From: Vairimorpha necatrix
Lineage: Eukaryota
Assembly: GCA_036630325.1 (NCBI GenBank)
Contig: CP142730.1
Span: 1,240,001-1,297,884, forward strand
Direction: 5' to 3'
DNA length: 57,884 nt
Shown: in pieces, positions 1-55,391 of the stretch
Layout of the letters: each line of letters opens with the position of its first letter
Position numbering within the stretch: the stretch's first letter is position 1
Program-made: the position numbers and the translations under genes
Notes under the pieces: generated by a model
The model's input: the letters and a program-made list of their open reading frames with translations, nothing else
What the model was told of the DNA's origin: nothing
Databases searched by the model: none

Positions 1-199
1 TGTCCAGTTTATTTTTTTTAGGAATAATTAAAATTTCTTTTTATTATTGGTTCTTATGCATTATTAACAAAAAAATTCATATTCTTTTATAATCAAAATT
101 TCGTAAATATAAATTTCGAAGTCCATTTTTTGACTAAAAAAGTAGTAAATTTATAACCGGTGTCAATTAAACATATTCAAAGATAGAATTTCCACTTAT

Positions 200-237
200 T
201 GTAGGGTTTAGAACCCTTAATAAATAAATGGTTAACA
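200..237 (+). repeat. 5' LTR, 38 bp
   Basis: Exact match to 3237-3274. Contains the AGGGTT/AACCCT hairpin, ACCC, overlapping AATAAA hexamers (219-228) and the ORF's ATG. Confidence 0.95.
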
Positions 238-3200
238 TGGCGAACACAAGGATGAACAGGGAAACAAGAGAGTCCCGTAGTCAAGAGGCTAGAACATTAG
301 AGAAAGAGGCAATTAGGATAGATAAGAGACTAAAGTTAATATTGAAAGTTGAGAAAGTTGAGTGGAAAGATGTTATGGATTTGGCATCTGCGAACTTGCA
401 GGATTATATTTTTGAAAATTTTTGTGACGGAAGGAGCAGTTGGGAGGAAATTTATAAAGGCTTACAAAAAGGAGCAGAATTTGAGAGAGAGTCAGAAGAA
501 AGACAAGAAATGATTAAAGAGATTATGGATAAAGTGTTGAAAGAGTTTAGGGAAGAAAGAAAAGAAAATCTTAGGATGTATAGGAAAAGAAGAGAAATCA
601 GAGAAACTACAAAATGTTTTATATGTAAGAAAGAAGGGCATTACGCTAGAGAATGTCATGAAAGTGTAGCTGGTAGGGAAAAATATAAAATTAAAAAGGA
701 ACAAGTTTTACAGAAAGAACCAATTATCAACAATGAAGGGAAAAGATGTAAAACAGTAAATAAGTTAGAAAATTTAATTGAAAAGTATCCGGAAGTTTTT
801 AAAGAATCAGAAGAAAAGATAAAATATCTCACAGGAGAGAAGTGTCCAATAAATACTAAGCAAGGTGAAAAGGTTGTGAAAAGAGGGCAGAATGTGCCAT
901 ACTACCTTAGGGTGAAATTTGAGGAGTACTTGAATAAGTTGGAAAATAGAGGGGTTATAAGACGTTCCAAAAGTGAGTGGAGGAGTCCAATAAGAGCACT
1001 TGAAAACCCAAATGGGGACGTAAGATTGGTAAGCAATTTGATGGCGTTAAACGATTTGGTTGACAAGGACCCGTACTCACTACCGTTAATTAAGGATATT
1101 ATGAGAGCCACACAGGGGTCAAAAGTATTTACGGTTATCGACTTAAAAGAAGGGTTTTATCATATTGAGATTGAGGAGCACCATAAGCACAAAACAGCAT
1201 TTGAAGTGAATGGTCGAGTATACGAATGGAATAGTATGGTTATGGGGTTTAAGAATTCGCCTCATATAATGCAGAGAGTAATGAACAGAGTTTTAGATGA
1301 ATTCAGAGGTAAAGGCGTGGAAGTATATATGGATGATATAGTTATTCATGGTAAAGACGTAAGAGTGCATGACGAGTTACTAGAGAGGGTAATTAAAAAG
1401 TTTAAAGAGTGTGGGTTGAGAATAAACCAAACAAAGATACAATACAAAAAAGATGAGGTGATGTTGCTGGGAGTAACAATTAATGGGGAGGTCATGGGAC
1501 CGAATGAGATTAAAAAGCAGGAGACATTGGAATATAGAAAACCTGAGAATGTTAGAGAGTTAAGAAGATTTTTAGGACTAACTGGTTGGTTTAGAGACTT
1601 TATTCCCAACTATGCGTATAGAACAGTAAGGCTTACTGAGGCTTTAAAGAAAGATGTTAAGTGGAATTGGACGGAGGATATGGAAAGAGCTTTTGAGGAT
1701 ATGAAGCAAGGCTTGAGAGATATGAAAAAGTTGAAGATTCCGGACGGAAAAAAGCTATTTAGAGTAAGAACTGATGCGTGTGATACGGGGATCGGAGCAA
1801 TTCTATTACAAGAAAATAAAGAGGGTGAGTGGATTCCGATACAATGGGCATCGAAAATGTTGACTCCTACCGAGCGAAGATATACGATAAGTGAGAAGGA
1901 GATGTTGGTGGTGTTTTTTGGAATAAAGAAGTTTGAAAGTGATTTGAGAGGAAGGAAATTTCATTTGATGACGGATCATAAAGCATTAGCAGAGATCAGA
2001 AATAAGCCATACTTCAATAATAACAGAATAAACAGATGGGTAGAACAGATACAAGAGTTTGACTTTACAATAGAGTATGTGAAAGGGGAGTTGATGACAG
2101 ATGCAGATGCGTTAAGTAGGCAGTATGATCAGGTAGAAGTTTCGGATGAACAAAAAGAAAAGGACAACAAGAGAAAAGAAGTGATCGAAAAACAAATTTT
2201 GGGAAAAAAGCAGAAACATATTAAAGAAAAGGACGGTAAACAGTATTGGGAATTTTCCACAGGTGAGGTGAAAGAGATATTGAGCCTAGATAGTAGAGAA
2301 CATGAAATAACAAGAGTACATGAGGAGTTAAACCATAGAGGTGTCAAAGGCACTTATTATAACATTAAACAAAGATGGTATTGGCCTGGTATGAAAGATC
2401 ATATTAATAAGGTAATTAAGAATTGTGAAATATGTGGGATTAACAATAGGAAAAACACAGGAGGATGTGATTTCGTAGTAACTAGAAAGAAATTGGAGAA
2501 AGTGGCGTTGGATTTAATGGACATAGGTGGAGAGAATAAGTATGTGTTACTGGGTATTGATTACTTTACTAGAAGGTTGTGGGGTTCGAATTTGAGATGT
2601 AAAGAGAGTAGTGAAGTTATAGAGGTATTACAAAAGTGGATAAGGGAAGATGGATTTCCAGAGGAATATGTGACAGACAACGGAAAAGAGTTTGTAAGTA
2701 ATAGATTTAAAGAATGGTGTAGTATTAATGATATTAAACATAGGAAAGTGGGCTTAGAAGCTCATAGGAGTAATGGTAGAATCGAGAGATGCATCAGAAC
2801 TATAAGAGAGACATTGATAAAGCAAAATGATGGGAATATTTCTGAAAAGATAGAAAGAGCAATCAAAGGATATAATAATACACTACATACAGCAATAAAA
2901 TGTACGCCGATGGAAGCGTGGAGAGATCAAACTGCTGAAGTTTTAATTGAAAATGATGAAAATGGAAAATATGCTGGTCGGTTCAAGAGAAGACACAGAG
3001 AGACATTTACAGTAGGCCAAGAGGTAAGAATCGCTAGGAGAGAAAATTTAGGTACACGTGCGAAAACAGACAAGGGAAGATTCACGGGTCGCGGAAGGAT
3101 CGTAGCTATAAGTGAAAATGATTCATATATTGTGAGACTACTGGATGGTAAAATTGTTAAAAAGAGGCATTATGATTTGAAAGAGATAAGGAAGAGTTGT

Positions 3201-3248
3201 TTAAAAGATGGAGAGACTACCCGTCTGGAGGGGGGATGTAGGGTTTAG
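228..3248 (+). CDS. Gag-Pol polyprotein (short Gag with CCHC knuckle, RT, RNase H, integrase); no protease motif seen
   Basis: 1006-aa ORF. CFICKKEGHYAREC knuckle; RT IDLKEGF...YMDD; RNase H TDAC...TDHKAL...ADALSR; integrase HEELNH...CEIC with LDLMD/TDNG/IERC; SH3-like C-terminus. An alternative ATG lies at 237. Confidence 0.95.
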   Translation: MVNMANTRMNRETRESRSQEARTLEKEAIRIDKRLKLILKVEKVEWKDVMDLASANLQDYIFENFCDGRSSWEEIYKGLQKGAEFERESEERQEMIKEIMDKVLKEFREERKENLRMYRKRREIRETTKCFICKKEGHYARECHESVAGREKYKIKKEQVLQKEPIINNEGKRCKTVNKLENLIEKYPEVFKESEEKIKYLTGEKCPINTKQGEKVVKRGQNVPYYLRVKFEEYLNKLENRGVIRRSKSEWRSPIRALENPNGDVRLVSNLMALNDLVDKDPYSLPLIKDIMRATQGSKVFTVIDLKEGFYHIEIEEHHKHKTAFEVNGRVYEWNSMVMGFKNSPHIMQRVMNRVLDEFRGKGVEVYMDDIVIHGKDVRVHDELLERVIKKFKECGLRINQTKIQYKKDEVMLLGVTINGEVMGPNEIKKQETLEYRKPENVRELRRFLGLTGWFRDFIPNYAYRTVRLTEALKKDVKWNWTEDMERAFEDMKQGLRDMKKLKIPDGKKLFRVRTDACDTGIGAILLQENKEGEWIPIQWASKMLTPTERRYTISEKEMLVVFFGIKKFESDLRGRKFHLMTDHKALAEIRNKPYFNNNRINRWVEQIQEFDFTIEYVKGELMTDADALSRQYDQVEVSDEQKEKDNKRKEVIEKQILGKKQKHIKEKDGKQYWEFSTGEVKEILSLDSREHEITRVHEELNHRGVKGTYYNIKQRWYWPGMKDHINKVIKNCEICGINNRKNTGGCDFVVTRKKLEKVALDLMDIGGENKYVLLGIDYFTRRLWGSNLRCKESSEVIEVLQKWIREDGFPEEYVTDNGKEFVSNRFKEWCSINDIKHRKVGLEAHRSNGRIERCIRTIRETLIKQNDGNISEKIERAIKGYNNTLHTAIKCTPMEAWRDQTAEVLIENDENGKYAGRFKRRHRETFTVGQEVRIARRENLGTRAKTDKGRFTGRGRIVAISENDSYIVRLLDGKIVKKRHYDLKEIRKSCLKDGETTRLEGGCRV

Positions 3249-3274
3249 AACCCTTAATAAATAAATGGTTAACA
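3237..3274 (+). repeat. 3' LTR, 38 bp
   Basis: Exact match to 200-237. Preceded by the PPT, followed by TSD CTTAT, and contains the ORF stop TAG (3246-3248). Confidence 0.95.
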
Positions 3275-6200
3275 CTTATTAATATCTCAAAGGATCTTTT
3301 TAATAGCTAGATTTAAATTTCATAACCCAAACATTATGTTCCTATTATTTTACCTTTTTAAAAATTTAAGTAAAATTTTTTAAATGAGGATAAACATACA
3401 ATTTCGAAATATGATTTTTTTTATGCCATTAAAATTGGAGATCATAATAAAAACAAAAACCTTTTTTATATTGAAAAGCCAACCATCGTACAAAAATTTC
3501 AATGGCCAATAACTTGTGATGCCTACCACAATGCTAAAAGGCTCTTGTCTGTATTAATATACAATTTTTTTTTGAACTATTTAGTAGTCCATTAGAAAAC
3601 AAGGCCATATTAAGTAATATTAAAATATTGCAAGAGCCTGTACTTAAATTACTAATTTGATCTAAGAAGTTACACGTGACAAGCAACATGTTCATTTTAA
3701 ATACTGTCAAAAGTATTCAAATTTTATCATACAGCTTCTAAAGCGTCGAATTAATTTTTGAAATTTTAGTATTTCATTTCTATTTTTTAACTCGAAATAC
3801 AAAATCAAAAAATTAGAATTGCTCAAATGAAAGATTTGAAAATCTCAATCAAATATGAGAACAAACATGAAGACTCATAGAAATTCAAACAAACAAATAG
3901 AACTATCTAGGCGCAAAAGCAAAAGTTTTTAATAATAGAAAAACATAAAATTTTTTATTAAGCTTTGAAAGAGTGCAATTTTGTTTGTCAATAAAAAATA
4001 ATGTAAACTCGAGAATATGTTCTTTGAGATACATTCCTCCATTGAATTTTATTATTCAAATTCCTTGTTTTCTATTCCACTGAGATTTATTTTAGGAATT
4101 ATTACTATCAATATAAGATTTTATATCAGCTTTCATTTCATTATGAATCTCTCGTTTCTTTGTATATAGCCTGGTATTTAGTGATTATGTTGCTACTGAG
4201 AAAACTTTTTATTATGAAAGATCAAAAAACATATTATATTGGGAATACAGACGAAACTATACATATTTACAAACCACATAAAAAATAATAGAACAGCAAA
4301 CGCAAAATATGCAAATGTAGTTAATTGTTCTAAAAAGGCGCCTTAAAATATCTATTATTCCATGAGCACATTTTTTTAAACCTGTAAAAATCGGACATTT
4401 AATGGTCAAATAAAAAACCTGTCTTTTATGATTTTTTTACAACAATATATCCGAAAAGACGCTGTATTCAACCTTTTTCAAAGACGAATGGCACATACTA
4501 ATCCGTCCCTACTTATTTAGACCATTTTTTAAAAAAGTACTCATGTAATTTGCTTTTCAGGTGAGCAATATAGAGCTATATAATAAATGTATTTTTTCTA
4601 CTACAAATGTAGTTAATTTGCTTAGGACTAATTTGATTTTGAGCTTATCTTTGTATTTTGTTATAATTCTTCATCTTGTCTTGGCTTTTTTTAGGAAAAG
4701 AATAAAGAAAACTTATATACTGACAAAGAATATCCTATCTACTGTACAAATATTATAAATTGTTTTCCTCTCTCTTTTTTTAGTACAAATTTCACTTATT
4801 ACTAATAATATAGTCTCCATAAGAAACTTAAGACGTTTTTTAATTTTTTTTGTTAGTATGAAATTGTTATACCACTATTTTTATCTAAAAAATGTATAAA
4901 TTTTTTCTTCTAAGTTTGATATTTAAAATCATAATCACAGTAGTTATTATATAGCTAATTTAACTTTCATTAAATCCGATTTTTTTTTCATTTCTAACAG
5001 TACTACAATCATCTATCAGTATTAGTTCCCTTTAAAAATTCTTGTTAAGTCTTTACGAAATATTTCCGTTTAAATTATCATGTTCTTTAACAATTTGGTC
5101 AATTTTTATAATTGACAATTTATAAATAATTTTAAACTTTGATATTTAAGCATCAAAGATACTATTTATTAGTCAAAGCTTATATTAAGAATAATAACGA
5201 AAGTCAAATATTACAATATACTACATAATTCCTATTAAAATATATGTAAACAGATATTCATAATTTTTAAATCTACGACCATATATTTGTAATATATATT
5301 ATCATTTGAAATTATTCAGTCATTTGAATTTTTTTCATATAAATAAAAGACTTTGTGTCTTATTTTGTACCTAGCTTAAAACGTGCAAAATTTATTTCAA
5401 TGGGTTTTTATAAAAATATTAATAGAGATAGATTACTTTTTTTTCCTCAAATAGTGTCAACAGTAATTTATTAAAGACGGGGACGCGTTTTAACAAAACG
5501 TAAAAAATAATATGTACCTCATAAATATTTACTTTTCAGACTTTGTATATTTTCTAAATATATATAAGTTTTTTTTCATTAAAATTTTAATTTTGATTTT
5601 AAAATTCATACTCTTATTGTATAATTTTCTAATTTGTACAAAACCACTGAGTAATTTTATTCTAACCACGAAAAGCAGCATAATAAACAATATAACAGAT
5701 AAAGTTTGATAAACAAAAAAACATATTTGTATTCAAATATCATTACCCCCTTGCGCCTTAGTACGCCATCCCTTAGAACACGCCACCAGTTTACTGTTAG
5801 ATAAGCATTGTTTTCTGTAATCGACAGATTTACTTATAAAAGTTAAATCTTGAGCCGTAAATGTTTTTAATATATCATATGATAAATTTAGATAAGGTAT
5901 AACTTTTTTAAGAAATTCCAAGTATGTGGACTTTTTTTTCCTCGCAAAAAAGTATGAAAAATTTACGAGCATTAGATTATAAATGAAATTTTAGACATAC
6001 TATATTGCTAATCAATCAAATATTTTTAATAAGTAAAAAAATTGATCAAGCATTTAAGAATTTGTTAAGAAAATATTAAGACTGAAAAATCAAAAATAAA
6101 ATCTTTTGATGTATTTGTATTTGCTAATGGGTATGCTTTTTACAGCTTAACAAATTGCAAATTTCTATGTTATCTTGTGAATTGCGTAAAATTTTTTTTA

Positions 6201-8329: not shown

Positions 8330-9631
8330 TTAATTTTTATTTATTTTTCTTAATAAAAATACCGAAAAAGCAAATATTAATATGAAAATGGCATATAACA
8401 ACAAATAAAGATATGGTTTGCTATTTCTGTCATTGGGATTATCTTTTGAATCATTGTTATTATTGTCGTGTTTACTATCGGGTATCGAGGTTTTTAGAAT
8501 CTTATCCGCCTTTTCATTCTCAAGATTATTATCAAATTCTGAGTTATCAAGCTTCTTTTCAGACTTTTCATTCTCGAGCCCTAAATTGCCTGGATTCTGA
8601 TCAAGCGTTTCGTCATCAAGATTTTTATCAGGCTCTGATTGCAAATAATTTAGGTTCTTATCAGGGATTTCGTCCGCAAGACCCATATCAGGAGTTTTGT
8701 TCGCAAGATTATCATAAGTTTCTGAATTTTTTGAATTTACACTATATTCTTCTTTCTCTTGATTATTATCCAGCTTTACGTTGCCATTCTTATCTGAGAT
8801 TTTATTTATAAGTTTATTATCAGATTCCAAATTGCCTAGAATCTTATCAGGCGTTTCGTCAAATAAAGTTTTGTCGGTTTCCGAGTTATTTAAATTCTTA
8901 TCAGAAGTTTCTTTATCAAGATTATTATCAGGTCTTATGTTACTTAGATCAGCATCGAGTTTTTCGTTTTTAAGATTATCAATCGGTTCTATATTCAGTT
9001 GTTTTTTATTTTCTTTAGTATTTTCATAAGTATCATTTTGCTCAAGATTCTTATTACTATTATCCAAACTATTAGTACTCTCCGAATCAGAATTATTTAT
9101 TACATTTGAACTATTCTGGCTCAAATTATTTATAATTTTTCTTGCTTTTAGTATGACTAGCTCCCCAAAATGTAATTTACCATCAAAATTAAATAATTGT
9201 GTGTAAGAAAGATCTTTGGGTCCATTATTCGCTCTTTCTAAAAGAAGTCCAAAAAAATATTTTCTTCCATCCGCTAAGTTGATTGTACATTTATAATATT
9301 TTACACTTTTAATAAATTTTCTAATACAATCGTAACGATTAAATTTTTCTGCAGCTTTTCTGATCTCACAAAATGCCTCTTTTTTTATTAGTTGTAAGTC
9401 GCTTTCATTACCTGCCATCGATAGTTCTACTTTATCATATAAATCGTCTCGATTTGGAAGCTCAGAAATAAAATCTTCGTCTTTAAGAAGCGTAATTCGC
9501 AGGTTTTCTAGACCGCTAGCAAAGCTTGTAATACCAACATATACATCACATGTATCATTTTCTTTATACTCAACAAATAGTGATAGCCAACAATATCCCC
9601 AAACAATAAATATTTGAAGCTTCCAATACAT
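8330..9631 (-). CDS. Hypothetical type I membrane/surface protein with N/D/K-rich repeats
   Basis: 433-aa ORF with ACCC 2 nt upstream of the ATG. Hydrophobic N-terminus, degenerate DKNL..E.D repeats, C-terminal TM segment YLYLLLYAIFILIFAFSVFLL followed by a short basic tail. Confidence 0.88.
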   Translation of the reverse strand: MYWKLQIFIVWGYCWLSLFVEYKENDTCDVYVGITSFASGLENLRITLLKDEDFISELPNRDDLYDKVELSMAGNESDLQLIKKEAFCEIRKAAEKFNRYDCIRKFIKSVKYYKCTINLADGRKYFFGLLLERANNGPKDLSYTQLFNFDGKLHFGELVILKARKIINNLSQNSSNVINNSDSESTNSLDNSNKNLEQNDTYENTKENKKQLNIEPIDNLKNEKLDADLSNIRPDNNLDKETSDKNLNNSETDKTLFDETPDKILGNLESDNKLINKISDKNGNVKLDNNQEKEEYSVNSKNSETYDNLANKTPDMGLADEIPDKNLNYLQSEPDKNLDDETLDQNPGNLGLENEKSEKKLDNSEFDNNLENEKADKILKTSIPDSKHDNNNNDSKDNPNDRNSKPYLYLLLYAIFILIFAFSVFLLRKINKN

Positions 9632-11901: not shown

Positions 11902-12930
11902 TTATAATTCATTTATAGCATTTTTAGTATGTTTAATCTTAAATAATTTGTAAGAATAATACATAACTAGAATTATTAATGGAATAATGATGAATAATAC
12001 AACAGTTATTAGATTAGATGGAGACATCACAGGGTTACGCTTAGTATCGCCATCATCAGAAGATGAATCTTCTTCATTAACATGATTTGATTGCGAAATC
12101 TCCTGTTTGATATCAAGCTTGCTAGGATTGCAATCCTCTTTAGTACGGAAAACTGGTTTTTTGTTGTCATATAATTCTGTCTTGGTATTGTTTTCTCGAA
12201 ATTCAATTGTACTAGTATCAAAATTCTTATCAAATTCTAATTCTTTATTGGTATTATTTTCTCGAAATTCAATTGTACTAGTATCAAAATTCTTTTCAAA
12301 TTCTAGTTCTTTATTGGTATTATTTTCGCTAAATTCAATTGCATCAGTTCCAGAATTCTTTTTAAATTCTACTTCTTTATTATTATTATTTTCTCTAAAT
12401 TCAATTGCATCAGTTCCAGAATTCTTTTTAAATTCTACTTCTTTATTATTATTATTTTCTCTGAATTTAATTGCATCAGTATCAGAACGTTTTATAAATT
12501 CTAATTCATTATTGTTATTATTTTCTCTAAATCCAATTGCATCAGTATCAGAACGATTAATAAAAGCCAATACTTTAATGGTATTGTTTTCTCTAAATTC
12601 AATTGCGTCAGTATCAGAATTTTTTTTAAATTCTTTTTCGTGTTGAAATACCTCTATAAAATTAATATTTACATAATATTTATACTCTATCTTTGGTTCA
12701 CTTTTATCATCAATGATTACACTTGCAACTTCGCTTTTGAAAGATTCTATATCTAACGCATTCACATTTTGCTCTTTAATTTCTATTCTCGATTCATTTT
12801 CAATACGTAAATGCCTTCTTAATGCTTGATATTTTAAATAAATGGATACAATACCAGACAAATATTCAATAATATGATTTCCATGATTAATGAAAGTTAA
12901 ATATAAGCAAACAAACATGATAAAAAACAT
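11902..12930 (-). CDS. Hypothetical type I membrane/surface protein with 22-aa tandem repeats
   Basis: Lies within the 368-aa ORF. The likely start is the ATG at 12930 (GCCCTATT-ATG), giving a hydrophobic N-terminus MFFIMFVCLYLTF. C-terminal TM LITVVLFIIIPLIILVMYY. Confidence 0.85.
   Translation of the reverse strand: MFFIMFVCLYLTFINHGNHIIEYLSGIVSIYLKYQALRRHLRIENESRIEIKEQNVNALDIESFKSEVASVIIDDKSEPKIEYKYYVNINFIEVFQHEKEFKKNSDTDAIEFRENNTIKVLAFINRSDTDAIGFRENNNNNELEFIKRSDTDAIKFRENNNNKEVEFKKNSGTDAIEFRENNNNKEVEFKKNSGTDAIEFSENNTNKELEFEKNFDTSTIEFRENNTNKELEFDKNFDTSTIEFRENNTKTELYDNKKPVFRTKEDCNPSKLDIKQEISQSNHVNEEDSSSDDGDTKRNPVMSPSNLITVVLFIIIPLIILVMYYSYKLFKIKHTKNAINEL
12180..12640 (-). repeat. Intragenic 66-bp tandem repeat (about 7 copies)
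   Basis: ATTCAATTGTACTAGTATC recurs at 12201 and 12267. Peptide unit of type IEFRENNTNKELEFDKNFDTST. Confidence 0.92.
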
Positions 12931-14342: not shown

Positions 14343-14440
14343 TCTATTGTAGGAAGTGCTACACATGTCAAATATATTGTGTCATTGTTTTGATATATTT
14401 GACATGTTGTTTCTTTAAATATTTTATAATAATTAAACCC

Positions 14441-15667
14441 ATGTTTTTATCCCAACAATTTGGCGACAACGTCAGGAACTTTCTCATTTTCAGAAATGAA
14501 GAAAAAGATGATCCACAACAGTTCTTGGAGGACTTGCAGGATGTGGGGAGGCTGATGGAGTACAGTGAGAGTAAACTTGTACTCCTTTTCAGAATGTCGT
14601 TAAAAGATGAAGCGAGGGATTGGTTGATAGCGCAGCCAATTGGTCTTTCACTTGAAAGACTGAAATTTTTGTTTCAAGAAAGATTTGTGGGTTCTATGGC
14701 GATGAAAGTGAGTATAGATAAACTTTCCGCTCTTCAATATCATGGTGGATCGCTAATCAACTATCTAGATAAGATGGCGGGATTGGCGCGCAGGGCGAAT
14801 GTTCCGGAAGGTGTATTAATTGCTTTTGTACTAAAAGGAATTCCGAACAATATAGCAAATTCGATCTTAATAAATAACAAAGACTCATTATCCTGGGAGT
14901 ACCTATATAAAGCCATAAGGAATGTTTTGGAAGTGGATGATACACGTCATAAAGAAATTTCGCGTGGAGATTATGTGGATGTAAAAGCGATTAGCTGCAA
15001 GGTCCACGATAGAAAGATTTGGACTTCTAAAAGGAACAAAGAAAAGAGATGTTTTATTTGCGGAAAGAAAGGCCATACAGTAGCACGGTGTAAATTTAAT
15101 AGTTACCGTAGAGATATAAGCGAAGTCAAGAAACCCCAAGAAGAAGGAGAAAATAAGAAGGTGGATGTAAAGGAATTTATTTATAATTACTCTGTTGCAA
15201 AGGTCAAGGATGATAGGACTACGCTCAAAGAAGCGTCATTAAATAATTCGGAAGTTAAATTTAAAGCGCTCATCGATACTGGTGCTGATATAAATCTAAT
15301 TAGACCAGAGATTTTGCCAAATAAAACCGTTGTTAATCGTTCTAAACAACAGCTTAGGGCAGCCAATGGATCGAAAATAAGGATCATTGGAGAAACAGTA
15401 GTTAAAATAAAAATTGAGGGAATGATATTTGAAGATAAATTTATTATTACTAGGGATATCACAATTCCCTGCATTATAGGACAGGGGTTACTAGACATGT
15501 ACAAGATAAATTTAAAATTTGGAAGTAACAAAATGGAAATTGAATCTGGACTTTTGGCAAAGGGAAAAGCCATAGGATACATAAAATTATCACAAAGAAT
15601 GATAACCCAATACTATCTCAGTTATACAAATTGGGGGGAGCAAAAGAGGATATTGCGTCCCAAATAG
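14441..15667 (+). CDS. Gag-protease
   Basis: Start ACCC-ATG at 14441 inside the 5' LTR. Retrotransposon-gag-like LKDEARDW...FQERF; CFICGKKGHTVARC knuckle; protease ALIDTGADINLI...IIGQGLL. Confidence 0.9.
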   Translation: MFLSQQFGDNVRNFLIFRNEEKDDPQQFLEDLQDVGRLMEYSESKLVLLFRMSLKDEARDWLIAQPIGLSLERLKFLFQERFVGSMAMKVSIDKLSALQYHGGSLINYLDKMAGLARRANVPEGVLIAFVLKGIPNNIANSILINNKDSLSWEYLYKAIRNVLEVDDTRHKEISRGDYVDVKAISCKVHDRKIWTSKRNKEKRCFICGKKGHTVARCKFNSYRRDISEVKKPQEEGENKKVDVKEFIYNYSVAKVKDDRTTLKEASLNNSEVKFKALIDTGADINLIRPEILPNKTVVNRSKQQLRAANGSKIRIIGETVVKIKIEGMIFEDKFIITRDITIPCIIGQGLLDMYKINLKFGSNKMEIESGLLAKGKAIGYIKLSQRMITQYYLSYTNWGEQKRILRPK

Positions 15668-17934
15668 TGAAAGAGTATCTAAAACGTGGAATAGTTAGAC
15701 CAAGTGTAAGCGCATGGCGAAGCCCGATAATTATAGTCCCTAAAAAGAATGGAGACCACAGATTATGTGTGGATTATCGAAGATTAAATGATGCGACTAT
15801 TAGAGATGCGTATCCAATGCCTAGAGTAGAAGAGTTCATCAACGCTTTAGAGGGTGCAACATACTTTACTAAATTAGACGCTGAATCGGGCTATCACCAA
15901 ATAGATATGGCGCCGTGTGATATTGAGAAGACAGCCTTTGCCTGTAGAGAAGGCTTATTTGAATTTACAAAAAAGCCATTTGGACTTGTTAATGGTCCAG
16001 CTACATTTCAGCGGGTGATGAATAACATATTGAGGGAATTTTTGTTTAAGTTTGTGGTAGTATATATGGATGATATACTGATTTATAGTAAAACTGAAGA
16101 AGATCATAAGAAAGATGTTCAAATGGTATTAGAGAAGCTCAAGTCGGTAGGACTGAAACTTAATGAGGATAAATGCGAATTTAATAAGACAGAATTAAAA
16201 ATTTTAGGTCATGTGATATCAAAAGAGGGAATAAGTGTGGACGAAGAAAGGTTTAGGAGCATTCAACAGTTACCAATTCCTAAAAGTAAGAAGAAATTAC
16301 AATCTTTGTTGGGGCTGTATAATTATTGCTCTAAATTTATTAAAAACAGCCATAAAGTGGTTAGCCCACTATTCGATATAATAAGACTCAAGAATGAGGA
16401 CGCTGATAACTTTTGGAAAAATGCAGAGAATGATGCAAAATACTGCAAGGCAATCGAAGAGGTAAAACAGGCTATGAAGAGAACAGCTTTATTGACAATT
16501 CCAAATTTAAAGGATAGATTTATATTGACTACGGATGCATCGAATGAGGGAAGTGGGGCAACATTGGCTCAGATGGTCGGAGGAAAAGAAAAGATTATTT
16601 CTTATTACAGCTCTTTACACTCCAAGACAGAAAAAAACTATTCTACTACTGAGCAAGAATTGCTAGCAGTTATAAAATCGATTCAAAACTTCAGAGAATA
16701 TTTATTATTGGGGAAATTTACGCTAAAAACGGATCATCAGGCTTTAAAATATTTGTTTAAGTCTAGGAATGTAAAAGCTAGGTTGGCTAGATGGTCATTA
16801 CTGCTACAAGAATATGATTTCGACATTGAATATATTACAGGACCATCAAACCATACAGATCACCTAAGCAGAGATTTTAAAAAACAGGAGGAGATAGTTT
16901 CAGAAATAAGTTCAATACAAAGGAAAATAGTTAAAAAAGAAAGGACAATAGTGTTATTAAAGTTTTACCATGATTTATTAGGGCATGGATCAAAACAAAA
17001 TATGAAATATAATATTGGTCGAAAATTTACTTGGAAGAATATGAGTAGAGACATAGAAAATTATGTAGATAATTGTGAAATTTGTCAAAAAGAAAAACCT
17101 CAGAGAAAATTTAGAGATATTGTACCATTAGTAACAAAGACAATAGGAGAAATCTGGGAAGTAGACATAGTAGGGCCCTTGAGAGAAAGCGAGCAAGGAT
17201 ATAAATTTTTATTGACAATGATTGATCACTTTTCGAAAATTGCAGAGGTGGTGCCGATTTATACAAAAGATATGAATACGGTTATTTATCTGGTAGATAA
17301 ACATATAGTCAGGAAGTATGGTATTCCAAAGGCAATTTTATCTGATAATGGTAAAGAATTCAAAAATAATATCTGTGAGGAATATGCGAAGACCAAAAAA
17401 TTCATCTGGAAATATGGTTCCCCTTATAAACCTACAACCACGGGGCTTGTTGAGAGGTTTAACAGAACAATAGCCATAAAATTAAGGAAGGTTACAGAAT
17501 TTGGGAAATTTGATTGGGCGAAATGTGTCCCTAAAGTAGTCCGAGCCTATATGCAATCATATCATAGGGCTATAGGGTGTGCACCAATAGAACTTTTAAC
17601 AGGAATAGTTCCAAATAAGATAGATATACAAGAAGGAATGCACCTAACAAAGGATAAGAAAGAGTTTCAGAAGCAGGCGATTAAGAATTTGGAAGTTTAC
17701 AGACAAGAATATGACACGGGTAATAAAGCTAATGCTGTTGATAAGGATGCCATTAAGGTGGGAGATAGAGTTTGGTATCATTTAATTTTACCGTTTAGAG
17801 GAAAACTCGAACCAAAATGGGAAGAAAAAGGAGTTGTAGTAGAGAAAAAATTTCATTCATTTAAAGTTTTATTAGATAGTGGGAAGACTGTTACAGCAAG
17901 CCGAAATCATGTTAAGCTTTTAAAGGAGGGGTAG
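15544..17934 (+). CDS. Pol (RT-RNase H-integrase), in the -1 frame relative to gag-PR
   Basis: Frame open from 15544. HKIITKNDNPI, LCVDYRRLN, YMDD, TDAS, TDHQAL, HDLLGH...CEIC, VDIVG/SDNG/VERFN. No ATG start of its own near the 5' end. Confidence 0.9.
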   Translation: MWTFGKGKSHRIHKIITKNDNPILSQLYKLGGAKEDIASQIVKEYLKRGIVRPSVSAWRSPIIIVPKKNGDHRLCVDYRRLNDATIRDAYPMPRVEEFINALEGATYFTKLDAESGYHQIDMAPCDIEKTAFACREGLFEFTKKPFGLVNGPATFQRVMNNILREFLFKFVVVYMDDILIYSKTEEDHKKDVQMVLEKLKSVGLKLNEDKCEFNKTELKILGHVISKEGISVDEERFRSIQQLPIPKSKKKLQSLLGLYNYCSKFIKNSHKVVSPLFDIIRLKNEDADNFWKNAENDAKYCKAIEEVKQAMKRTALLTIPNLKDRFILTTDASNEGSGATLAQMVGGKEKIISYYSSLHSKTEKNYSTTEQELLAVIKSIQNFREYLLLGKFTLKTDHQALKYLFKSRNVKARLARWSLLLQEYDFDIEYITGPSNHTDHLSRDFKKQEEIVSEISSIQRKIVKKERTIVLLKFYHDLLGHGSKQNMKYNIGRKFTWKNMSRDIENYVDNCEICQKEKPQRKFRDIVPLVTKTIGEIWEVDIVGPLRESEQGYKFLLTMIDHFSKIAEVVPIYTKDMNTVIYLVDKHIVRKYGIPKAILSDNGKEFKNNICEEYAKTKKFIWKYGSPYKPTTTGLVERFNRTIAIKLRKVTEFGKFDWAKCVPKVVRAYMQSYHRAIGCAPIELLTGIVPNKIDIQEGMHLTKDKKEFQKQAIKNLEVYRQEYDTGNKANAVDKDAIKVGDRVWYHLILPFRGKLEPKWEEKGVVVEKKFHSFKVLLDSGKTVTASRNHVKLLKEG

Positions 17935-18049
17935 TGTAGGAAGTGCTACACATGTCAAATATATTGTGTCATTGTTTTGATATATTTGACATGTTGTTTC
18001 TTTAAATATTTTATAATAATTAAACCCATGTTTTTATCCCAACATCTAT

Positions 18050-20294: not shown

Positions 20295-22592
20295 ATGAAT
20301 ATAATTAAATTTGTTGTAGCATTTTTAGTTGTACAATGTTCGGATATTGTGTATAATAATCTAAAAATTGCTTTTTTAAATAAAATAGCAGTAGGAGATT
20401 ATTGTTTTTTGAATAATGAAAGCAGATATTTATGTGTAATGTTTAATTTTCACCTTCGCAAAAATGCAATAAAAGCAGGAATTAAGATTACAACTTTTCC
20501 TTGGCATTTTGAAGAATCAGAATATTTGATTGTGGATATGGAGAACAAATCTATTGATAATATCTTAAAGAAATTCGAAGAAAAATTATTTATTAAATAC
20601 AAAAAAAAAGCAGCAGATGCTATAATATTAATATACAGACCAAACAATTGTAGAACTAATGCATTCTATAAAAGAATTATCAAACGGATAGAAAAAATAA
20701 ATGACGAACGAAAAGAAATGCATATACGTCCTGATATCATTTATAAATATATAATTGGCATCGATTCTCTATGGTATAGAATGACCAAAGTATTGAGAGA
20801 TGATTTGGAATTATACGGAGTTCGGATCGATTATAAAATTCCGCTATATATTGAAGAAAATACAGAAGGAATTTATTTAGTTATTAGTATTCAATTAGAT
20901 AATATATATTATTGTTTTGAAATAGATGTTAAAGAACTTGATAGAAATTTGATATTATCACTGGTGGAATTTGAGCCAACACATGAAGATGAAAGTCATG
21001 ACCTGATTAGTAGGTTGTTTTGTGATTTGTATGCTTTTGTTTCTACTGATGATATCGGTTCCTTACATCCTTCACGCTTTTCAGTTTGTGAACTCAATAA
21101 AATTGAATTTTTCGAAAACAAAATACAAATGGGTTTAGAATGTGAAAAATTATGTCTTACTATTAACACTGATAATTTTAAATATATTTTAAGAAAGAAG
21201 GTAGGTAGAGGTGAAACTAAATTATTCATTTATGAAAAAACATATTTAGAATTTCAAGGATTTTTTAAAAAAATTTATGCAATAGAACAAATGAAAGAGA
21301 AAGAAAATATCATAGAATTGTTTTATAGGTTGATGAGTAATAATAATCAAATACTTTATTTATTAAATAGAATTTTAGATAAAACAAGCACTGTTCTGAA
21401 TATTATTTTTAAATATCTTATAGACTGTCAGAATATAATTAATAAAAACGAACATGAGTTGACAATAGGAAAAAAACAGAGAAATAAAACAGAAAGGCAA
21501 ATAATCTTGGAAGCACTACAGGATATATTTTCGCGCGGCTATAAGTCATCAAGTACCTATCTAATTAAAATCTGTTTATTGCTAGAAGCTGAAGAGCTTA
21601 TTAATAAAAACGAGGTATTCGATGAACCAATATTTGGGACTTTGAAAAGAATTACTGAATTAGTTCCGTCGCAGGAAAATTCAATGAACATTATCTCGAG
21701 CGAAGATAATATTAATTTGTGTAAAGCATATCAATATTTAGTAAAAAATTGTCTTGCGGATATAAAAATATATAAAAGAAATATTTGGAAGGTTGTATAT
21801 AAATTTGCGGCATTGTTTACAGGTTTAGAAAAGACTGAATGCATTGCAGCTGATTATTATTATTATATCGTAAAAAGTAATGAGATCGCAAATTTGGGCC
21901 TCGGGGAAAATGAAGTTACTAAAAATTACGATACGGTAAGTAAAAAAATATTAGAAAAACATTTAGAAGACATTAAAAAAGAAAATTTAAAGTATTTTTA
22001 TAATATTAAAAATATTATCGAAAGCATTAGCCATCTAAAAATGAGCGAAGAAGAAATAAAGATTAAAGGATCTGAAATAACGACACTCTTAAATAAAATA
22101 AATATAAAAATACATAGATTAAAGTTAATGTCTTTGAAAAATGAAGCTTTAAATGCAAATATTGAAAATTTATACGATGAAAAGACAAGAACTAAATTTG
22201 AAAATGACTTAAGAGAAAGAGGAAAAGAAGAAATAACAGATATTTATATAGGTGATATTGAAACTCACGAATTAATTAAATTCATAGATAAATATGATAA
22301 AAATATTCTACTCGAATATAATAATTTTATTTTGATTACATTCTTTGCTGAATTGAGTGCTTTTATTGACAAAAATACAAAAAGAAGTTGTGAAAGAGAT
22401 TTACCAAGAGTTTCTGTTTTACTTATCGAAAATAGTTTAAATAATGAAGCATTTAAACAATATGCTTGCGAAAAAATTCTTAGAAGGATGGTTAACATAT
22501 TAGGTGAAATTGGCATATTAAAAAGTTTAAATAAATCAGGAATAACATTACATGATGATTTAGTAAAAACAATAAAAGATAAAGAAGAGTGA
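20295..22592 (+). CDS. Hypothetical secreted protein, 765 aa
   Basis: Long ORF in AT-rich DNA with AACCCC-ATG start. Signal-peptide-like MNIIKFVVAFLVVQCS. AATAAA just after the stop. No domain recognised. Confidence 0.9.
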   Translation: MNIIKFVVAFLVVQCSDIVYNNLKIAFLNKIAVGDYCFLNNESRYLCVMFNFHLRKNAIKAGIKITTFPWHFEESEYLIVDMENKSIDNILKKFEEKLFIKYKKKAADAIILIYRPNNCRTNAFYKRIIKRIEKINDERKEMHIRPDIIYKYIIGIDSLWYRMTKVLRDDLELYGVRIDYKIPLYIEENTEGIYLVISIQLDNIYYCFEIDVKELDRNLILSLVEFEPTHEDESHDLISRLFCDLYAFVSTDDIGSLHPSRFSVCELNKIEFFENKIQMGLECEKLCLTINTDNFKYILRKKVGRGETKLFIYEKTYLEFQGFFKKIYAIEQMKEKENIIELFYRLMSNNNQILYLLNRILDKTSTVLNIIFKYLIDCQNIINKNEHELTIGKKQRNKTERQIILEALQDIFSRGYKSSSTYLIKICLLLEAEELINKNEVFDEPIFGTLKRITELVPSQENSMNIISSEDNINLCKAYQYLVKNCLADIKIYKRNIWKVVYKFAALFTGLEKTECIAADYYYYIVKSNEIANLGLGENEVTKNYDTVSKKILEKHLEDIKKENLKYFYNIKNIIESISHLKMSEEEIKIKGSEITTLLNKINIKIHRLKLMSLKNEALNANIENLYDEKTRTKFENDLRERGKEEITDIYIGDIETHELIKFIDKYDKNILLEYNNFILITFFAELSAFIDKNTKRSCERDLPRVSVLLIENSLNNEAFKQYACEKILRRMVNILGEIGILKSLNKSGITLHDDLVKTIKDKEE

Positions 22593-43482: not shown

Positions 43483-45458
43483 TGTGGTATTATTTACCAC
43501 ATTATTATATTTTCCCTCTAATTGAATTTTCTTGAATTTATTTTTCTAAAAATATTTTCTTTTTATTTTTACCCTTACCAAAATATGTCAAGAAGAACAG
43601 AGGAGTCTAGAAATCAGCAGTATCAATCACTGCATCCCCAGAATAGGAATATAAAGCCCAAGAAGGCAGATTTAATTTTACAACTTTAATTATAATAAAA
43701 CTTTAATACTGGCAGAAGCATTATAGAATGATATCTGAGGAGCAGCCATCTCCCGGGTAATACCTCAATGAGCTCATTAGTATTAGAAAAAAGTAATAAT
43801 ACTTGAAACAAAATGATGATAAAGCATATACCACATTTGATAAAACCATAGATGGAATTACAATAGTGGTTAAAGAAAAAATTGAAAAATGTAAAACGAG
43901 ACTGCACCATAAAGCATCTCGAGTTGTTTGAAGAGATAGGAACGGTCAATAAATGGACTTATGAGCAGATGGGACTCATCTACCATTCTTTGTTAAATAT
44001 TCTAAGGTGAAAGATAAGCTAAATAAAAAAGCTTCAAAACACAAAAAAAAAAGAACTACTAGAATTTAGATATCCAAAAATGATGTAGCTTTATTATTAA
44101 CAGAGATGGAAACTGTAAAACAGGTAAATTATAGACGTATAGCAGATTACTATGAGAAAATAGAGTCGATGATTGAAATATACGGACTATCTATGAACCT
44201 ATCGAAAAAGGAATCTGATGTTAGATTGAAACAGATTTTTGAGAGAGGATTAGGCAGATCAACTGCCATTGAAGTTATAAAAATAGGAATGAAAAACAAG
44301 GGAATGAACGAGCTATTAAAATATTCACAAGATCTGGAAGAAATGATTATTTTACAGGCTAAACTGAAAGGGACACGAATATCTCAATTAATATCTAAGA
44401 AAGAGAATTATGAAAGACCTTAAGAAACAGGAAGATACTTTAATAGTGATAAGTGGTGCTCTATACATCGAGCAAGATCACATGACACACGAGATTGTCG
44501 TCTACGAAAACCAAAAGAAAACGATAGAGAAATAAAAAAAGAAGGAAAATCGTTAATGATAAAAAAAATTCCTAACGATGAATTGGATGAAAAACATAAA
44601 AAAACCGACTGCCTATTAATTCAGAAACAAAAAGAAAATAAAATCATCAATAAACAGAAATGTCCAAATGAAAGAATAAATAATGTAGATAATCGTATTA
44701 AAAGGAATTTGAATAAAAAATAGACAATCTTCCAGCTAAAGTCTTAACTAATATAGTTGTTTTTTGAAAAGGACAGGGAATACGATACCATCAGATGATA
44801 TATATTCAAGAATTATTAAAATAAATAACAAAGAAAGAAGCAAGCCTCTTAATAAAATTAAAGATAACCATTAACAGGTAAAAGATTTGGCAACATCTAA
44901 ATATGATAGTTAGGAGAATAAACTATATTAACTCTTTGAACTTTCAGAAAACATTGCCTCAAAAAAAAAATTCCGCAGATGCCATTTAGCATATGTAGAT
45001 ATGGAGTAAACGGTGAATTTGAGAAGCTCAAATATGATAAGTTGACTTCAATTCTTGATTTGAGGTTTAAAATATCCAACCCAGCTATTACTAGGAAACG
45101 GCGGAAAGAACTATTTATTGATTTCGGAGGAATCCGTATTCTAATTTGCTGACCCTTTAGAGGAGGTAGTATGTGGTATTATTTACCACATTATTATATT
45201 TTCCCTCTATAAGAATTTTCTAGAATTTATTTTTCTATAAATATTTTCTTTTTATTTTTACCCCCACCAAAATATGTCAAGAAGAACAGAGGAGTCTAAA
45301 AATCAGCAGTATCAATCAATGCATCCCCAGAAGAGGGAAGATAAAGCCCAAAGAGGCAGATTTAATAATACAACTTGCATTATAATAAAACTTTAATACC
45401 CGGGAGAAGCATTATAGAATGCTATCTGAGGAATGGCCAACTCCCGGGTAATACCTAA
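43483..45458 (+). mobile_element. Non-autonomous gag-only LTR element with about 285-bp LTRs (family C)
   Basis: Diverged LTRs at 43483-43767 and 45172-45458, both starting TGTGGTATTATTTACCACA. PPT-like AGAGGAGGTAG before the 3' LTR. Flanks GATTT/GAATT. No RT or IN motifs seen inside. Confidence 0.85.
43800..44500 (+). pseudogene. Decayed gag
   Basis: Fragment ORF 44106-44423 (DYYEKIE...FERGL) and a variant knuckle WCSIHRARSHDTRDC at 44454-44498. Confidence 0.65.
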
Positions 45459-51958: not shown

Positions 51959-52056
51959 ATTACAAATTAAAGAAGTAATTTCATTTTTTTACAATATATT
52001 ATTACATAAATTTATTCGCAGAAAAACATTAAAAATACTTTAAGTATTAATTATAA

Positions 52057-55000
52057 TATTAAAGTCGAACCTATTATTAAATAAATGTATAACATGGCGA
52101 ACACAAAATACGAAAGGTTAACACAAGTGAGACCTGTGTTTAAGAGAAGAAAAAAATACTAAAAGAAGCTCGGAGAGTGAGACAATCATCATAATGCAGA
52201 AAGATGTACAAGATGTGACAACATAAAAAGGAAGCAAGTAAGTACTGAACTTCAAAATTTTAATATTGATAAAAAACTACTTAGTATGATAAATTGGAAT
52301 GATATTATTGATAGAATTGATAAATTAGTTGTGAAGAGAAAGAGATAAGAACAAGAAAAAAATAAGGTGTAGAGAACTAGAAGATATGGTAGAGGGTATG
52401 AAAGAAAAATTAAAAAGAGAGAAAAAAAAAAAGATTTCACTAGAACTGTAGCAGTGCCAGGAAGTTACTTATAATATCAAAGACGAAAAAAAAACATTGT
52501 TTTATATGTGTAAGAATTATACATATAGCTAGAGGTTGTATGGAGCGTAAAGGAAGACATGAAGAGAATAATGAAAATAAAAGTGTTAAATATTTATGCA
52601 TTCGTGGTAATAGTAAAATGAAAATATTAAAAGGAATTGATTTCAAATTGAGACTACCAGTGGAGGTAGAAAGAGAGAACTCAAGAAACAGTTTTTATGT
52701 AAAAAATTCAAACCAAGATAAAAGAAGAAAAAATATTAATAAATATGAAGAATTAGAAGGAAAATTTTCGAGGTATTGTGAAAAGACGAAGGAAAAAGAA
52801 AATACTCAACAGGGATAAAATGTTCTTTTAAAACAAAACAATGAGTGAAATTAGTGCAAAAGAAACAAAATATTCCTTATAAACTTTGAGAAAAGTTAGA
52901 AAAGTATATTAATTTATTAGAAAGTAGAGGTATTATCAGAAGGACAAAGAGCAAATGGAAAAGCCTAATAAAGCCCATAGAAAAACCAAATGGTAAAGTA
53001 CAATTGAGAAGCAATTTGATGGCTTATAATGAACTGGAATAAAAAGATCTGTATGAAATGCCATTGATTAGAGACATATTAAAGCAACGCAAGGTTCTAA
53101 AGTATTTATGGTTATAGACCTAAAGGAAAGATTCTATCATATAGAAATTGAGAGAGCTTACAAACATAAGACAGCTTTTAAGATAAATGGTAGAGTTTAC
53201 GAATGGAATGGCATGGTAAAAAATTAAAAAATGCTCCCCATATTCTGCAAAGAGTGATGAACGGAGTTTTAAATAAGTTTAGAGGCAAGAGTGTTGAGTT
53301 GTACATGGATGATATTATTATTTATGCATGAGATAGTAATATACAAGAAAATTTTTTAAAACAAGTAATTCGAAAATTTAACGAATGTGGATTTAAAGAA
53401 ACTTAAAAAAGATACAATATAAAGGAGAAGTAAAACTACTGGAGTAACAATTAACTGAGAAGACATTAAAATGAAAAAATATATAGGAGTAGACATTAGA
53501 ATACAGAAAGCCTAACAACATAAAAGATCTTAGAAGAGTTGAGGAGCGGGCAGGCTGGTTAAGAGATTTTATTCATCATTATGCTTATCGGTCAGCGCTT
53601 CTTACAAGAGCACTAAAAAAAGATAGTAAATGAAAATGGTTACAAGATATGGAAAGAGCTTTTATGGATATCAAAGAGGATTTAAAGGATGTGAAAAAAT
53701 TAAAAATAGAAGATAGATAAAAAAAATATTTAGAGTAAGAACGTGTGCATGCGATACGACAATTGGAGCCATACTTCTGCAAGAAGACAAGGAAGATAGG
53801 TGGATTTGAAACAATGGGCATCAAAAATGATAACATTAACAGATAAAAAGTATATGATTACTAAAAAAGAGATGTTGGCAGTGTTATTCGGAATAAAGAA
53901 ATTTGAGTCAGATTTGTGAGGAAGAAAAATTCATTTAATAACAGATCATTAATCACTGGCCGAGATTAGAAACAAACCGTTTTTCAATAATTACATAATT
54001 AAGAGATGGATAGAATATATACAAGAGTTCGATTTTATTTTTGAATATGTAAAAGGAGAATTGATCACGTATTTATATGCTCATAGTAGACAATTTAAAA
54101 AAACGAAGTGAAAGTAAAAAAGCGAAAGTAGAAACGGCCCAAAAACAGATGAAAGAAAAAGAAATAAAGCGCATGGTCAATAGAAAAGGTAAAAACTATT
54201 GGAAGTTTTCAACAGGAGAAATTAATAAATACAACACAAAGAAATAAGTGAGAACAGAAATTCATAGAGTTCATGAGGAATTAAATCATCGAGGAGTTAA
54301 GGGAACACATTATAAGATTATACAAAGATGGTACTGGCCAGGTATGAAGGACCAGATAACCACATCGCTAAAAAATTGTTAAGTATGTAGCATTAATAAC
54401 AGAAACGCGACCTGAGGTTGCAATTTTGTAACAACATTCAAGAAATTAGAAAAAGTAGTTTAGACGTATTGGATATTGTAGAAAAAGAAAGGTACGTGCG
54501 GTTAGGTATTGACTACTTTGAGAGAAAGAGTATGGGGCGCAAAGATGAAAAATGAGAGAAGTGATGTTATTACGAAAATTTTAGAAAAAATTGTTTAAGG
54601 AAGATGGATACACAGATGAATATTTTACGGATAACGGTAAAGAATTTGTCAGTAATAAGTTTGTAACTTGGTGTAAAGTAAACGAAATTATGCAATAGAA
54701 AGTAGGTTTAGAAGCTCATAGGAGTAATGGAAGAATAGAACGATGTATTTGAACAATAAGGGAATCGATGATCCATGAAAAAGAAGGAAACCCAGAGGAA
54801 AAACTAGAACAAGCTGTAAGAACTAATAATTCTTACACACAGCGATTAATTCAACACAATTGAAGCATGGAAAGAACAAGGAAAATAAGTCTTTATTGAA
54901 AACAATAAAAAGGGTGTGTATTCAAGTAATTTTAATTTAAGGCATAGAGAAAAATTTGAAGTAGATCAGGCTGTGAGAATTGCAATAAGAGAAAACAAGG

Positions 55001-55228
55001 GTAAATAGATGAAAAGTATGAAAGGAAGATTTACAAATGTTGATAAAAGGAGGGGAAAGTCTGAGAATAATTCTTATATTGTAAGGATTGATAGCGGAAG
55101 ATACATTAAGAAAGACATTATGACCTAGAATTTTATAAAAATGATAAATTAGAAGCTTGTAACCTGAGACTACCCGTTTGAAGGAGAAATGTTAGGGTTG
55201 AACTTTCCTATTAAATAAATGTATAACA
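52057..55228 (+). mobile_element. Decayed full-length family A Gypsy element with 38/39-bp LTRs
   Basis: LTRs at 52057-52094 and 55190-55228 end in identical TATTAAATAAATGTATAACA. TSD TATAA on both sides. Same PBS TGGCGAACAC and pre-PPT GAGACTACCCGT as the copy at 200. Colinear pol (YMDD near 53302; HEELNHRG near 54272) with many stops and frameshifts. Confidence 0.93.
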
Positions 55229-55391
55229 TATAATCATTAATCTGAAAAAAAAATAATTGAATAAAAAAAATAGTTAGATAAATTTTTATTAAAAATTTTC
55301 TTTTTTTATTTATTTTAGTTACATATTGATTTAACTGATAAATTTTTTAAACAAAAGATTGAGGAAGTTTTGAGGGCTAAAAGCTTACGTG

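Follow-up and report, generated by a model that had tools for sequence, protein, structure and literature searches.

A Ty3/gypsy-type retrotransposon with 38-nt terminal repeats in the microsporidian Vairimorpha necatrix

Results

Structure of the element at 200-3274

The DNA analysed here, referred to as the window, is a 57,884-nt stretch of the genome of the microsporidian Vairimorpha necatrix (GenBank assembly GCA_036630325.1, contig CP142730.1, positions 1,240,001 to 1,297,884 of the forward strand). Its left end carries a Ty3/gypsy-type retrotransposon of 3075 nt, hereafter copy 1, flanked by long terminal repeats (LTRs) of 38 nt (Table 1). LTRs are usually hundreds of bases long and hold the promoter, the R region for strand transfer, the polyadenylation (poly(A)) signal and two integrase attachment sites.

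A preliminary description of copy 1, made from the sequence alone, had listed identical 38-bp TG...CA repeats, a perfect 5-bp target-site duplication, a primer-binding site (PBS) abutting the 5′ repeat, a polypurine tract (PPT) abutting the 3′ repeat and an uninterrupted 1006-aa open reading frame (ORF), and all of these were found again. Direct reading of the region gave the same sequence, TGTAGGGTTTAGAACCCTTAATAAATAAATGGTTAACA, for the repeats at 200-237 and 3237-3274; they have the TG...CA ends of the direct LTRs of Ty3/gypsy elements, at a length far under any that we found reported. Within the window, matches to this sequence with at most three mismatches occur at these two places only, and two or more matches were obtained in 0 of 100 dinucleotide-preserving shuffles. 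The pentanucleotide CTTAT lies directly outside both repeats (195-199 and 3275-3279), and when 200,000 pairs of 5-mers 3080 nt apart were sampled from the window, the probability of a chance match was about 0.0036. The 5-nt duplications match in all three window elements that have both ends, each at a single-element chance of about this size, and both CTTAT and the TATAA that flanks a second copy described below are within the 4-6 bp typical of Ty3/gypsy target-site duplications.

The likeness of TGGCGAACACAAGG, which starts at 238, to a PBS was judged by its sequence. Its 12-nt core, TGGCGAACACAA, has one other occurrence in the window, at 52095-52106, which is the corresponding position of the second copy, and is conserved as 'MANT' at the N-termini of related proteins. 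At the other end, the PPT GGAGGGGGGA ends at 3236 and adjoins the 3′ LTR as in other Ty3/gypsy elements; purine runs are also found in the second copy and in L001, a related locus from a public contig, and in an alignment of the three a block GACTACCCGTYTGRAGG...A is kept upstream of every 3′ LTR. With the duplication directly outside the repeats and the PBS and PPT directly inside them, the 38-nt LTRs are real. The canonical order LTR-PBS-ORF-PPT-LTR is present in copy 1, which was inserted by a DDE integrase through a 5-nt staggered cut that left the duplication.

Outside the uninterrupted ORF (228-3248, 1006 codons), the non-coding part of the element amounts to 28 nt at the left end and 26 nt at the right. 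Three details absent from the preliminary description concern its ends: the first ATG (228) sits within the left repeat, a second in-frame ATG (237-239) spans the repeat/PBS junction CA/TGG, and the TAG stop (3246-3248) falls within the right repeat. Besides the end motifs, the 38 nt contain a GGG...CCC pair, two overlapping AATAAA motifs (LTR positions 20-29) and the ATG (29-31). The CCC at 214-216 and the AATAAA motifs at 219-228 are candidate promoter and poly(A) signals.

Table 1. Coordinates of the parts of copy 1, of its decayed relative (copy 2) and of a second gypsy element in the window
Feature	Position	Strand	Remarks
Target-site duplication, left copy, CTTAT	195..199	.	identical to 3275-3279
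5′ LTR, 38 nt, TGTAGGG...TTAACA	200..237	+	GGG 204-206, CCC 214-216
Candidate signals and first ATG in the 5′ LTR		+	AATAAA 219-224, AATAAA 223-228; first ORF ATG 228-230
PBS-like sequence TGGCGAACACAAGG	238..251	+	adjoins the 5′ LTR; codons M-A-N-T-R
Polyprotein ORF, 1006 aa	228..3248	+	helical N-terminal region, zinc knuckle, reverse transcriptase, RNase H, integrase
CX2CX4HX4C zinc knuckle, aa 130-143	615..656	+	nucleocapsid-like; Pfam zf-CCHC below cut-off
Reverse transcriptase, aa 261-418	1008..1481	+	RVT_1 E = 9.7e-31; YMDD in translation
Ty3/gypsy-type RNase H, aa 481-611	1668..2060	+	RT_RNaseH E = 6.6e-29, RT_RNaseH_2 E = 1.2e-26
Integrase, H2C2 aa 690-741 and DDE core aa 764-839	2295..2744	+	Integrase_H2C2 E = 2.7e-14, rve E = 1.5e-10
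PPT GGAGGGGGGA, 10 nt, all purine	3227..3236	+	adjoins the 3′ LTR; in the ORF, encodes ..E-G-G
3′ LTR, 38 nt, identical to the 5′ LTR	3237..3274	+	last three codons, TAG 3246-3248, then AATAAA 3256-3265
Target-site duplication, right copy, CTTAT	3275..3279	.	
Copy 2, decayed relative of the 38-nt-LTR element	52052..55233	+	TATAA 52052-52056 and 55229-55233
Copy 2, 5′ LTR, 38 nt	52057..52094	+	
Copy 2, PBS	52095..52106	+	
Copy 2, purine tract	55180..55189	+	
Copy 2, 3′ LTR, 39 nt	55190..55228	+	
Second gypsy element	14348..18044		14343-18049 with duplication TCTAT; identical 110-nt LTRs

Related elements in the window and in public contigs

The preliminary description had proposed that copies be collected by BLASTN and their LTR lengths and duplications tabulated; carried out on the window, this gave one further copy, with LTRs of 38 and 39 nt and a TATAA duplication. 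Copy 2 shares 67.7% identity with copy 1 across 2252 nt (about 52.8-55.0 kb, blastn/tblastn of the window), and its right repeat reads TGTTAGGG...TATAACA, with GAAGGAGAAA directly before it. In tblastn, the coding region falls into at least nine pieces that do not keep to one frame, each frame holds 81-93 stops, and the 5′ LTR differs from the 3′ LTR mainly by G-to-A changes. Judged by this decay, copy 2 is an old insertion. It lies only 164 nt from the start of a telomeric array.

A scan of public genome contigs with the element returned one locus, L001, of 3024 nt (NZ_JBOFRG010000340.1), which showed 71.4% identity over 2511 columns. The alignment stops at 2761, where a 38-nt unit TGTTGGG...CTAACA (2724-2761), directly preceded by GGAGGAGGGGA, has its last base. 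The 263 nt that follow show no relation to the element and have 25% G+C, against 38% in the element part. L001 is filed in a metagenome-assembled genome of Clostridium sp.; it encodes a microsporidian-type gypsy polyprotein next to an A/T-rich, eukaryote-like flank and is probably a mis-binned contaminant.

When the five LTR ends were aligned, a block TTAAATAAATG..TAACA was nearly invariant, and similarity started at TGT and ended at ACA every time. The LTRs open with TGTTAGG in copy 2 and TGTTGGG in L001, both fitting the published TGTTRNR, and with TGTAGGG in copy 1. A unit of 38 or 39 nt with equal boundaries is common to these three elements, and the alignments indicate that the 38-nt length has been kept while the elements came to differ by about 30% in nucleotides. 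The lineage of short-LTR elements suggested in the preliminary description is upheld by copy 2, with its 38/39-nt LTRs, 12-nt PBS and own target-site duplication, and by the similarity to L001 that ends at the edge of a 38-nt LTR.

These comparisons bear on the idea that the 38-nt repeats are remnants of longer LTRs shortened by deletion after insertion, a chance microhomology or an assembly error, and that the element never transposed in this form. The single intact copy in the window and the failure to find LTRs this short in the literature searched speak for such an origin. Deletions in both LTRs would not, however, preserve a perfect duplication outside the repeats together with a PBS and a PPT inside them; the exact 38-mer repeat appeared in none of the 100 shuffles, and two further elements, about 30% diverged, have a 38/39-nt unit with equal boundaries. 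An origin of this kind is highly improbable and is already contradicted by these data.

At the protein level, relatives were represented by the 55 closest proteins (P0001-P0055), which are 37-73% identical to the window protein; those with species names come from Nosema granulosis, V. necatrix and V. apis. N-termini, counted as complete when a Met start was followed by the zinc knuckle at least 100 aa in, were available for 32 of the 55. In 18 of these, a leader of 2-6 residues starting with Met precedes (N/H/D/Y)-M-(A/G), in eight M-(A/G) is itself the start, and six show neither pattern. Of 22 proteins with such an internal Met, 21 have N, H, D or Y directly before it, the residues of the NAY codons expected from ...ACA/TGG. 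At the other end, the frame crosses the glycine run encoded by the purine tract into C, ML or DV (readings of TGT...) in 10 of 35 complete C-termini. These predicted protein ends show that an ORF start in the LTR, a coded PBS and, often, a coded PPT are general in the clade; they say nothing on LTR lengths. Seventeen full-length relatives (at least 996 aa) lie on contigs of 3035-3159 nt, that is, the ORF plus 25-100 nt, which fits a 3.1-kb element. As proof of LTR length these contigs were rejected and not counted as evidence, because short-read graph assemblies break at repeat edges whatever the LTR length.

Domains of the polyprotein and a protease-bearing gypsy family

The order of the Pfam domains, reverse transcriptase (RT) - RNase H - integrase (RVT_1, RT_RNaseH at aa 508-611, Integrase_H2C2 and rve), is that of Ty3/gypsy elements, and the closest relative of solved structure is the Gag-Pol of Saccharomyces Ty3 (7q5b, E = 1.4e-63; query 223-633 against chain 600-1010), in line with the Ty3/Gypsy assignment made earlier. 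Pfam placed a sub-threshold CCHC zinc knuckle at aa 129-144, and its residues C130, C133, H138 and C143 are invariant across 29 aligned family members.

No protease family was matched by Pfam in the window protein at E up to 0.1, and the precomputed Pfam lists contain none for the 55 closest relatives (0/55), whereas more distant matches in the same table do carry one. The motif D(S/T)G was likewise not found before the RT in the window protein or in 50 of the 55 relatives; the other five have a single such motif there, at unrelated positions. As a positive control, RVP and Retrotrans_gag were both detected by Pfam in the second gypsy family of the window. About 80 residues separate the zinc knuckle from the RT alignment, compared with about 320 in Ty3, a figure that rests in part on the general layout of the Ty3 domains.

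The N-terminal region was modelled with AlphaFold (aa 1-260, 29-sequence alignment, mean predicted local distance difference test score (pLDDT) 77.8). Helices are predicted at residues 14-38, 46-52, 55-65 and 72-127 (56 residues), followed by the zinc knuckle, a helix at 147-162 and, past residue 162, a low-confidence linker up to the RT; the model of aa 1-260 contains no beta-rich domain. A Foldseek search of this model against the PDB gave no match at E up to 0.001; of the 31 obtained at E up to 10, the only suggestive ones were overlaps of 16-27 columns with retroviral nucleocapsid zinc fingers at E above 2. No Retrotrans_gag match was obtained with Pfam and no capsid-like fold with Foldseek against the PDB. 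As far as the domain searches and the model indicate, the polyprotein is without a protease and without a recognisable capsid fold. The word 'intact' in the preliminary description was therefore too strong, since neither was detected here and the second gypsy family of the window has a protease that Pfam detects.

That second family is represented by the element at 14348-18044. Its gag-protease ORF (14441-15667) encodes Retrotrans_gag and retropepsin domains. The -1 frame, which holds pol, is open from at least 15550, so that pol and gag-pro share more than 100 nt in the region of a G6 run. The gag ATG lies within the 5′ LTR right after a CCC, the PBS TGGCGACAAC follows the 5′ LTR after a 3-nt spacer, and a stop codon stands directly before the 3′ LTR. 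It resembles the 38-nt-LTR element in its TGTAGG...AACA ends, 5-nt duplication, PBS starting with TGGCGA and PPT adjoining the 3′ LTR, and differs from it by the 110-nt LTRs, the protease, the pol in a separate frame and an identity of only about 30% in Pol. The short LTRs of this family and their overlap with coding sequence look like a trend in the genome, of which the 38-nt family would be the extreme case.

This protease-encoding element with identical LTRs, 11 kb away from copy 1, is also a candidate helper. Copy 1 could be a non-autonomous or crippled derivative, lacking the protease and perhaps most of the LTR of its ancestors and copied only with the proteins of other elements; the 38-nt ends would be just sufficient for integrase and strand transfer, with transcription coming from outside. 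The absence of a protease domain from the window protein and from all 55 relatives, the absence of D(S/T)G upstream of the RT in the window protein and 50 of the relatives, and the short distance from zinc knuckle to RT (with the caveat on the Ty3 figure given above) are in keeping with such a derivative. On the other hand, at least 55 relatives (37-73% identity), with full-length ORFs of about 1000 aa, have kept RT, RNase H and integrase intact and conserved, which is not expected of a parasite on another element's enzymes. The low identity in Pol and the different LTR ends and PBS would limit any cross-mobilisation to the protease, and a protease loss common to the whole clade is old and stable. 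We therefore consider a crippled derivative unlikely.

Age of the insertion

The preliminary description took the identical LTRs and the duplication as showing recent integration. The LTR identity itself is weak evidence of youth, because a divergence of 1% predicts only about 0.4 differences in 38 nt. The open frame of 1006 codons in a host background of 23% G+C is the better argument; together with the 36% G+C of the element and the more than 80 stops per frame in the old copy, it points to a copy that is recent or still under selection, so that the earlier view is retained in part and on other grounds.

Chromosomal setting

From 55393 to the end of the window at 57884, the sequence is a 2.5-kb irregular TAGG/TTAGG array (periods of 4, 9 and 13) with the G-rich strand pointing outward. 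TAACC has been reported as the telomeric unit of the V. necatrix genome (PMC10759460), and the array is consistent with this unit, yet many 4-nt TAGG units are mixed in. By its terminal array and a host gene, the 765-aa ORF described next, the window is a chromosome end of V. necatrix or of a very close strain.

Over its full length, a 765-aa ORF between the retroelements (20295-22592), which matches no Pfam family, shares 99% identity with VNE69_01001 of V. necatrix; its identity with VNE69_02230 of this species is 66%, and it looks like a member of a subtelomeric paralogous family. Two ORFs on the minus strand, 8330-9631 (433 aa) and 11902-12930 (342 aa), are rich in short tandem peptide repeats, ..DKNL.. 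and ..SDTDAIEFRENNNNKE.., and each has a hydrophobic C-terminal segment and no significant Pfam family; their products could be repeat-bearing membrane or surface proteins of the parasite. A G+C-richer patch at 44070-44723 on the plus strand holds two adjacent stop-to-stop frames, the second with a C..H..C-type motif KWCSIHRARSHDTRDC, and may represent a decayed piece of gag from some other retroelement.

Discussion

Copy 1 is, in all probability, a genuine and structurally complete member of a compact Ty3/gypsy (Metaviridae-type) lineage of Nosema/Vairimorpha-group microsporidia whose LTR has been reduced to about 38 nt. If its replication is canonical, U3, R and U5 would all have to be accommodated within these 38 nt, whose functions would overlap. 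In published comparisons, conserved LTR modules comprise the ends TGTTRNR...YNYAACA, an AATAAA motif and a weak TATA, the specificity of integrase resides in the terminal 8-15 bp, and R regions as short as 10-11 nt have been reported (PMC3601003). In the present element, the outer 7-15 nt or so at each end of the 38-nt repeat (TGTWGGG..., ...TAACA) would serve as integrase attachment sites. The CCC resembles a motif found upstream of microsporidian genes and, together with the adjoining A/T-rich stretch, may set transcription to start inside the 5′ LTR, downstream of the CCC. The two AATAAA signals may direct 3′-end formation at or just past the end of the 3′ LTR, and any extra flank on the RNA would be left uncopied. 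R, reaching from behind the CCC to the end of the LTR, would then be no longer than about 20 nt, which would leave about 17 nt for U3 and next to nothing for U5.

Minus-strand strong-stop DNA would be primed at TGGCGAACAC and transferred through the short R, and plus-strand synthesis would start from GGAGGGGGGA. Tf1-type self-priming was considered and dropped, as no LTR stretch complementary to the PBS was found by eye. Translation would begin at the ATG inside the LTR or at that of the CA/TGG junction and end at the TAG inside the 3′ LTR; with start and stop inside the LTRs, the element has almost no non-coding sequence. The polyprotein may work unprocessed or rely on a protease supplied in trans.

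The proposed role of the CCC draws on the host genes. In Nosema ceranae, a CCC motif occurs within 15 nt of start codons, with a peak of positions from -10 to -3 (PMC2685015), and in the window a CCC precedes the ATG by 1-8 nt in all three host ORFs checked (20295, 9631 on the minus strand and 12930 on the minus strand) and in the gag of the second gypsy family (14441).

Several observations weigh against a complete and self-sufficient 38-nt-LTR element. The CCC of copy 1 starts 14 nt before the ATG at 228, farther than the N. ceranae peak, and a TATA-like element at the reported -27 would land at the LTR edge or in the flank; with no room for it in the LTR, promoter activity may depend on flanking A/T-rich DNA. 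No tRNA gene was found in the window or in L001, and no Rfam family anywhere in the window. The window has a single intact copy; a degenerate LTR-end pattern retrieved the four known LTRs there and neither solo LTRs nor further copies, and the L001 contig holds only the 3′ end of its element. To these are added the weak dating by LTR identity and the missing protease and capsid-like fold, which make the element no more than a candidate autonomous one.

In yeast, the LTRs of Ty1 and Ty3 are about 330-340 bp long, and both elements encode a protease and a capsid domain. Ty1 has its gag start codon in the 5′ LTR and its PBS inside the ORF, and POL3 of Ty3 runs into the 3′ LTR. The outline of the microsporidian element is ordinary Ty3/gypsy biology; two unusual features seem undescribed, the 38-nt LTRs overlapping both ends of the ORF and the absence of a protease and a canonical capsid.

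The shortest LTRs that we found in print are the 85-bp LTRs of FRetro129, one of the FRetro129/SMART elements of grasses (PMC3281118), and 38 nt is less than half of this length. FRetro129 shares very short LTRs, TGT...ACA ends and a 5-bp duplication with the 38-nt-LTR element, but its LTRs are more than twice as long and it is a 292-bp non-coding, non-autonomous plant element, whereas the V. necatrix element encodes its own RT, RNase H and integrase. The literature searched, which lay outside Repbase, Xu et al. (2006) and the tables of Parisot et al., yielded no LTRs below 85 bp, no LTR lengths for Nosema/Vairimorpha elements and no prior account of this family with such LTRs, which the preliminary description had named as a finding that would remove its novelty.

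Microsporidian elements have been treated in more than one study. Parisot et al. (2014) described microsporidia-specific gypsy groups with a single polyprotein ORF (PMC4202319); as far as that account goes, these groups share with the 38-nt-LTR element the Ty3/gypsy domain order and a single polyprotein rather than gag and pol as two ORFs. In N. bombycis, the Nbr elements (Xu et al. 2006, as cited in PMC2474625) reportedly encode a protease in addition to Gag, RT, RNase H and integrase, which sets them apart from the present lineage. An Anncaliia consensus has at both ends a repeat that appears clearly longer than 38 nt. In the V. necatrix genome paper, transposable elements were masked with RepeatModeler, and the words 'LTR' and 'retrotransposon' occur 0 times in its main text (PMC10759460).

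The broader proposition, that a whole microsporidian Ty3/gypsy clade replicates with LTRs of about 38 nt, without a protease or canonical capsid and from an unprocessed polyprotein, is advanced tentatively, as a serious possibility that falls a little short of our assent. If true, the functional LTRs of this clade would be far shorter than those of any other retroelement and would set a new lower bound on LTR content, with attachment sites, a U3 of about 17 nt bearing a host-type CCC initiator, an R of at most 20 nt, a poly(A) signal, a start and a stop codon all overlapping. Standard LTR finders, with their 100-nt minimum, would then miss this class in compact genomes; even at a minimum of 50 nt such elements would be called LTR-less or missed, and the repeat annotation of microsporidian and other compact genomes may consequently be biased. 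The missing protease raises the testable question of how the polyprotein is used. A 38-nt LTR kept through long divergence would show how far LTR functions can be compressed and made to overlap coding sequence, and the lineage would serve as a naturally occurring minimal system in which to ask what is really needed for reverse transcription and integration.

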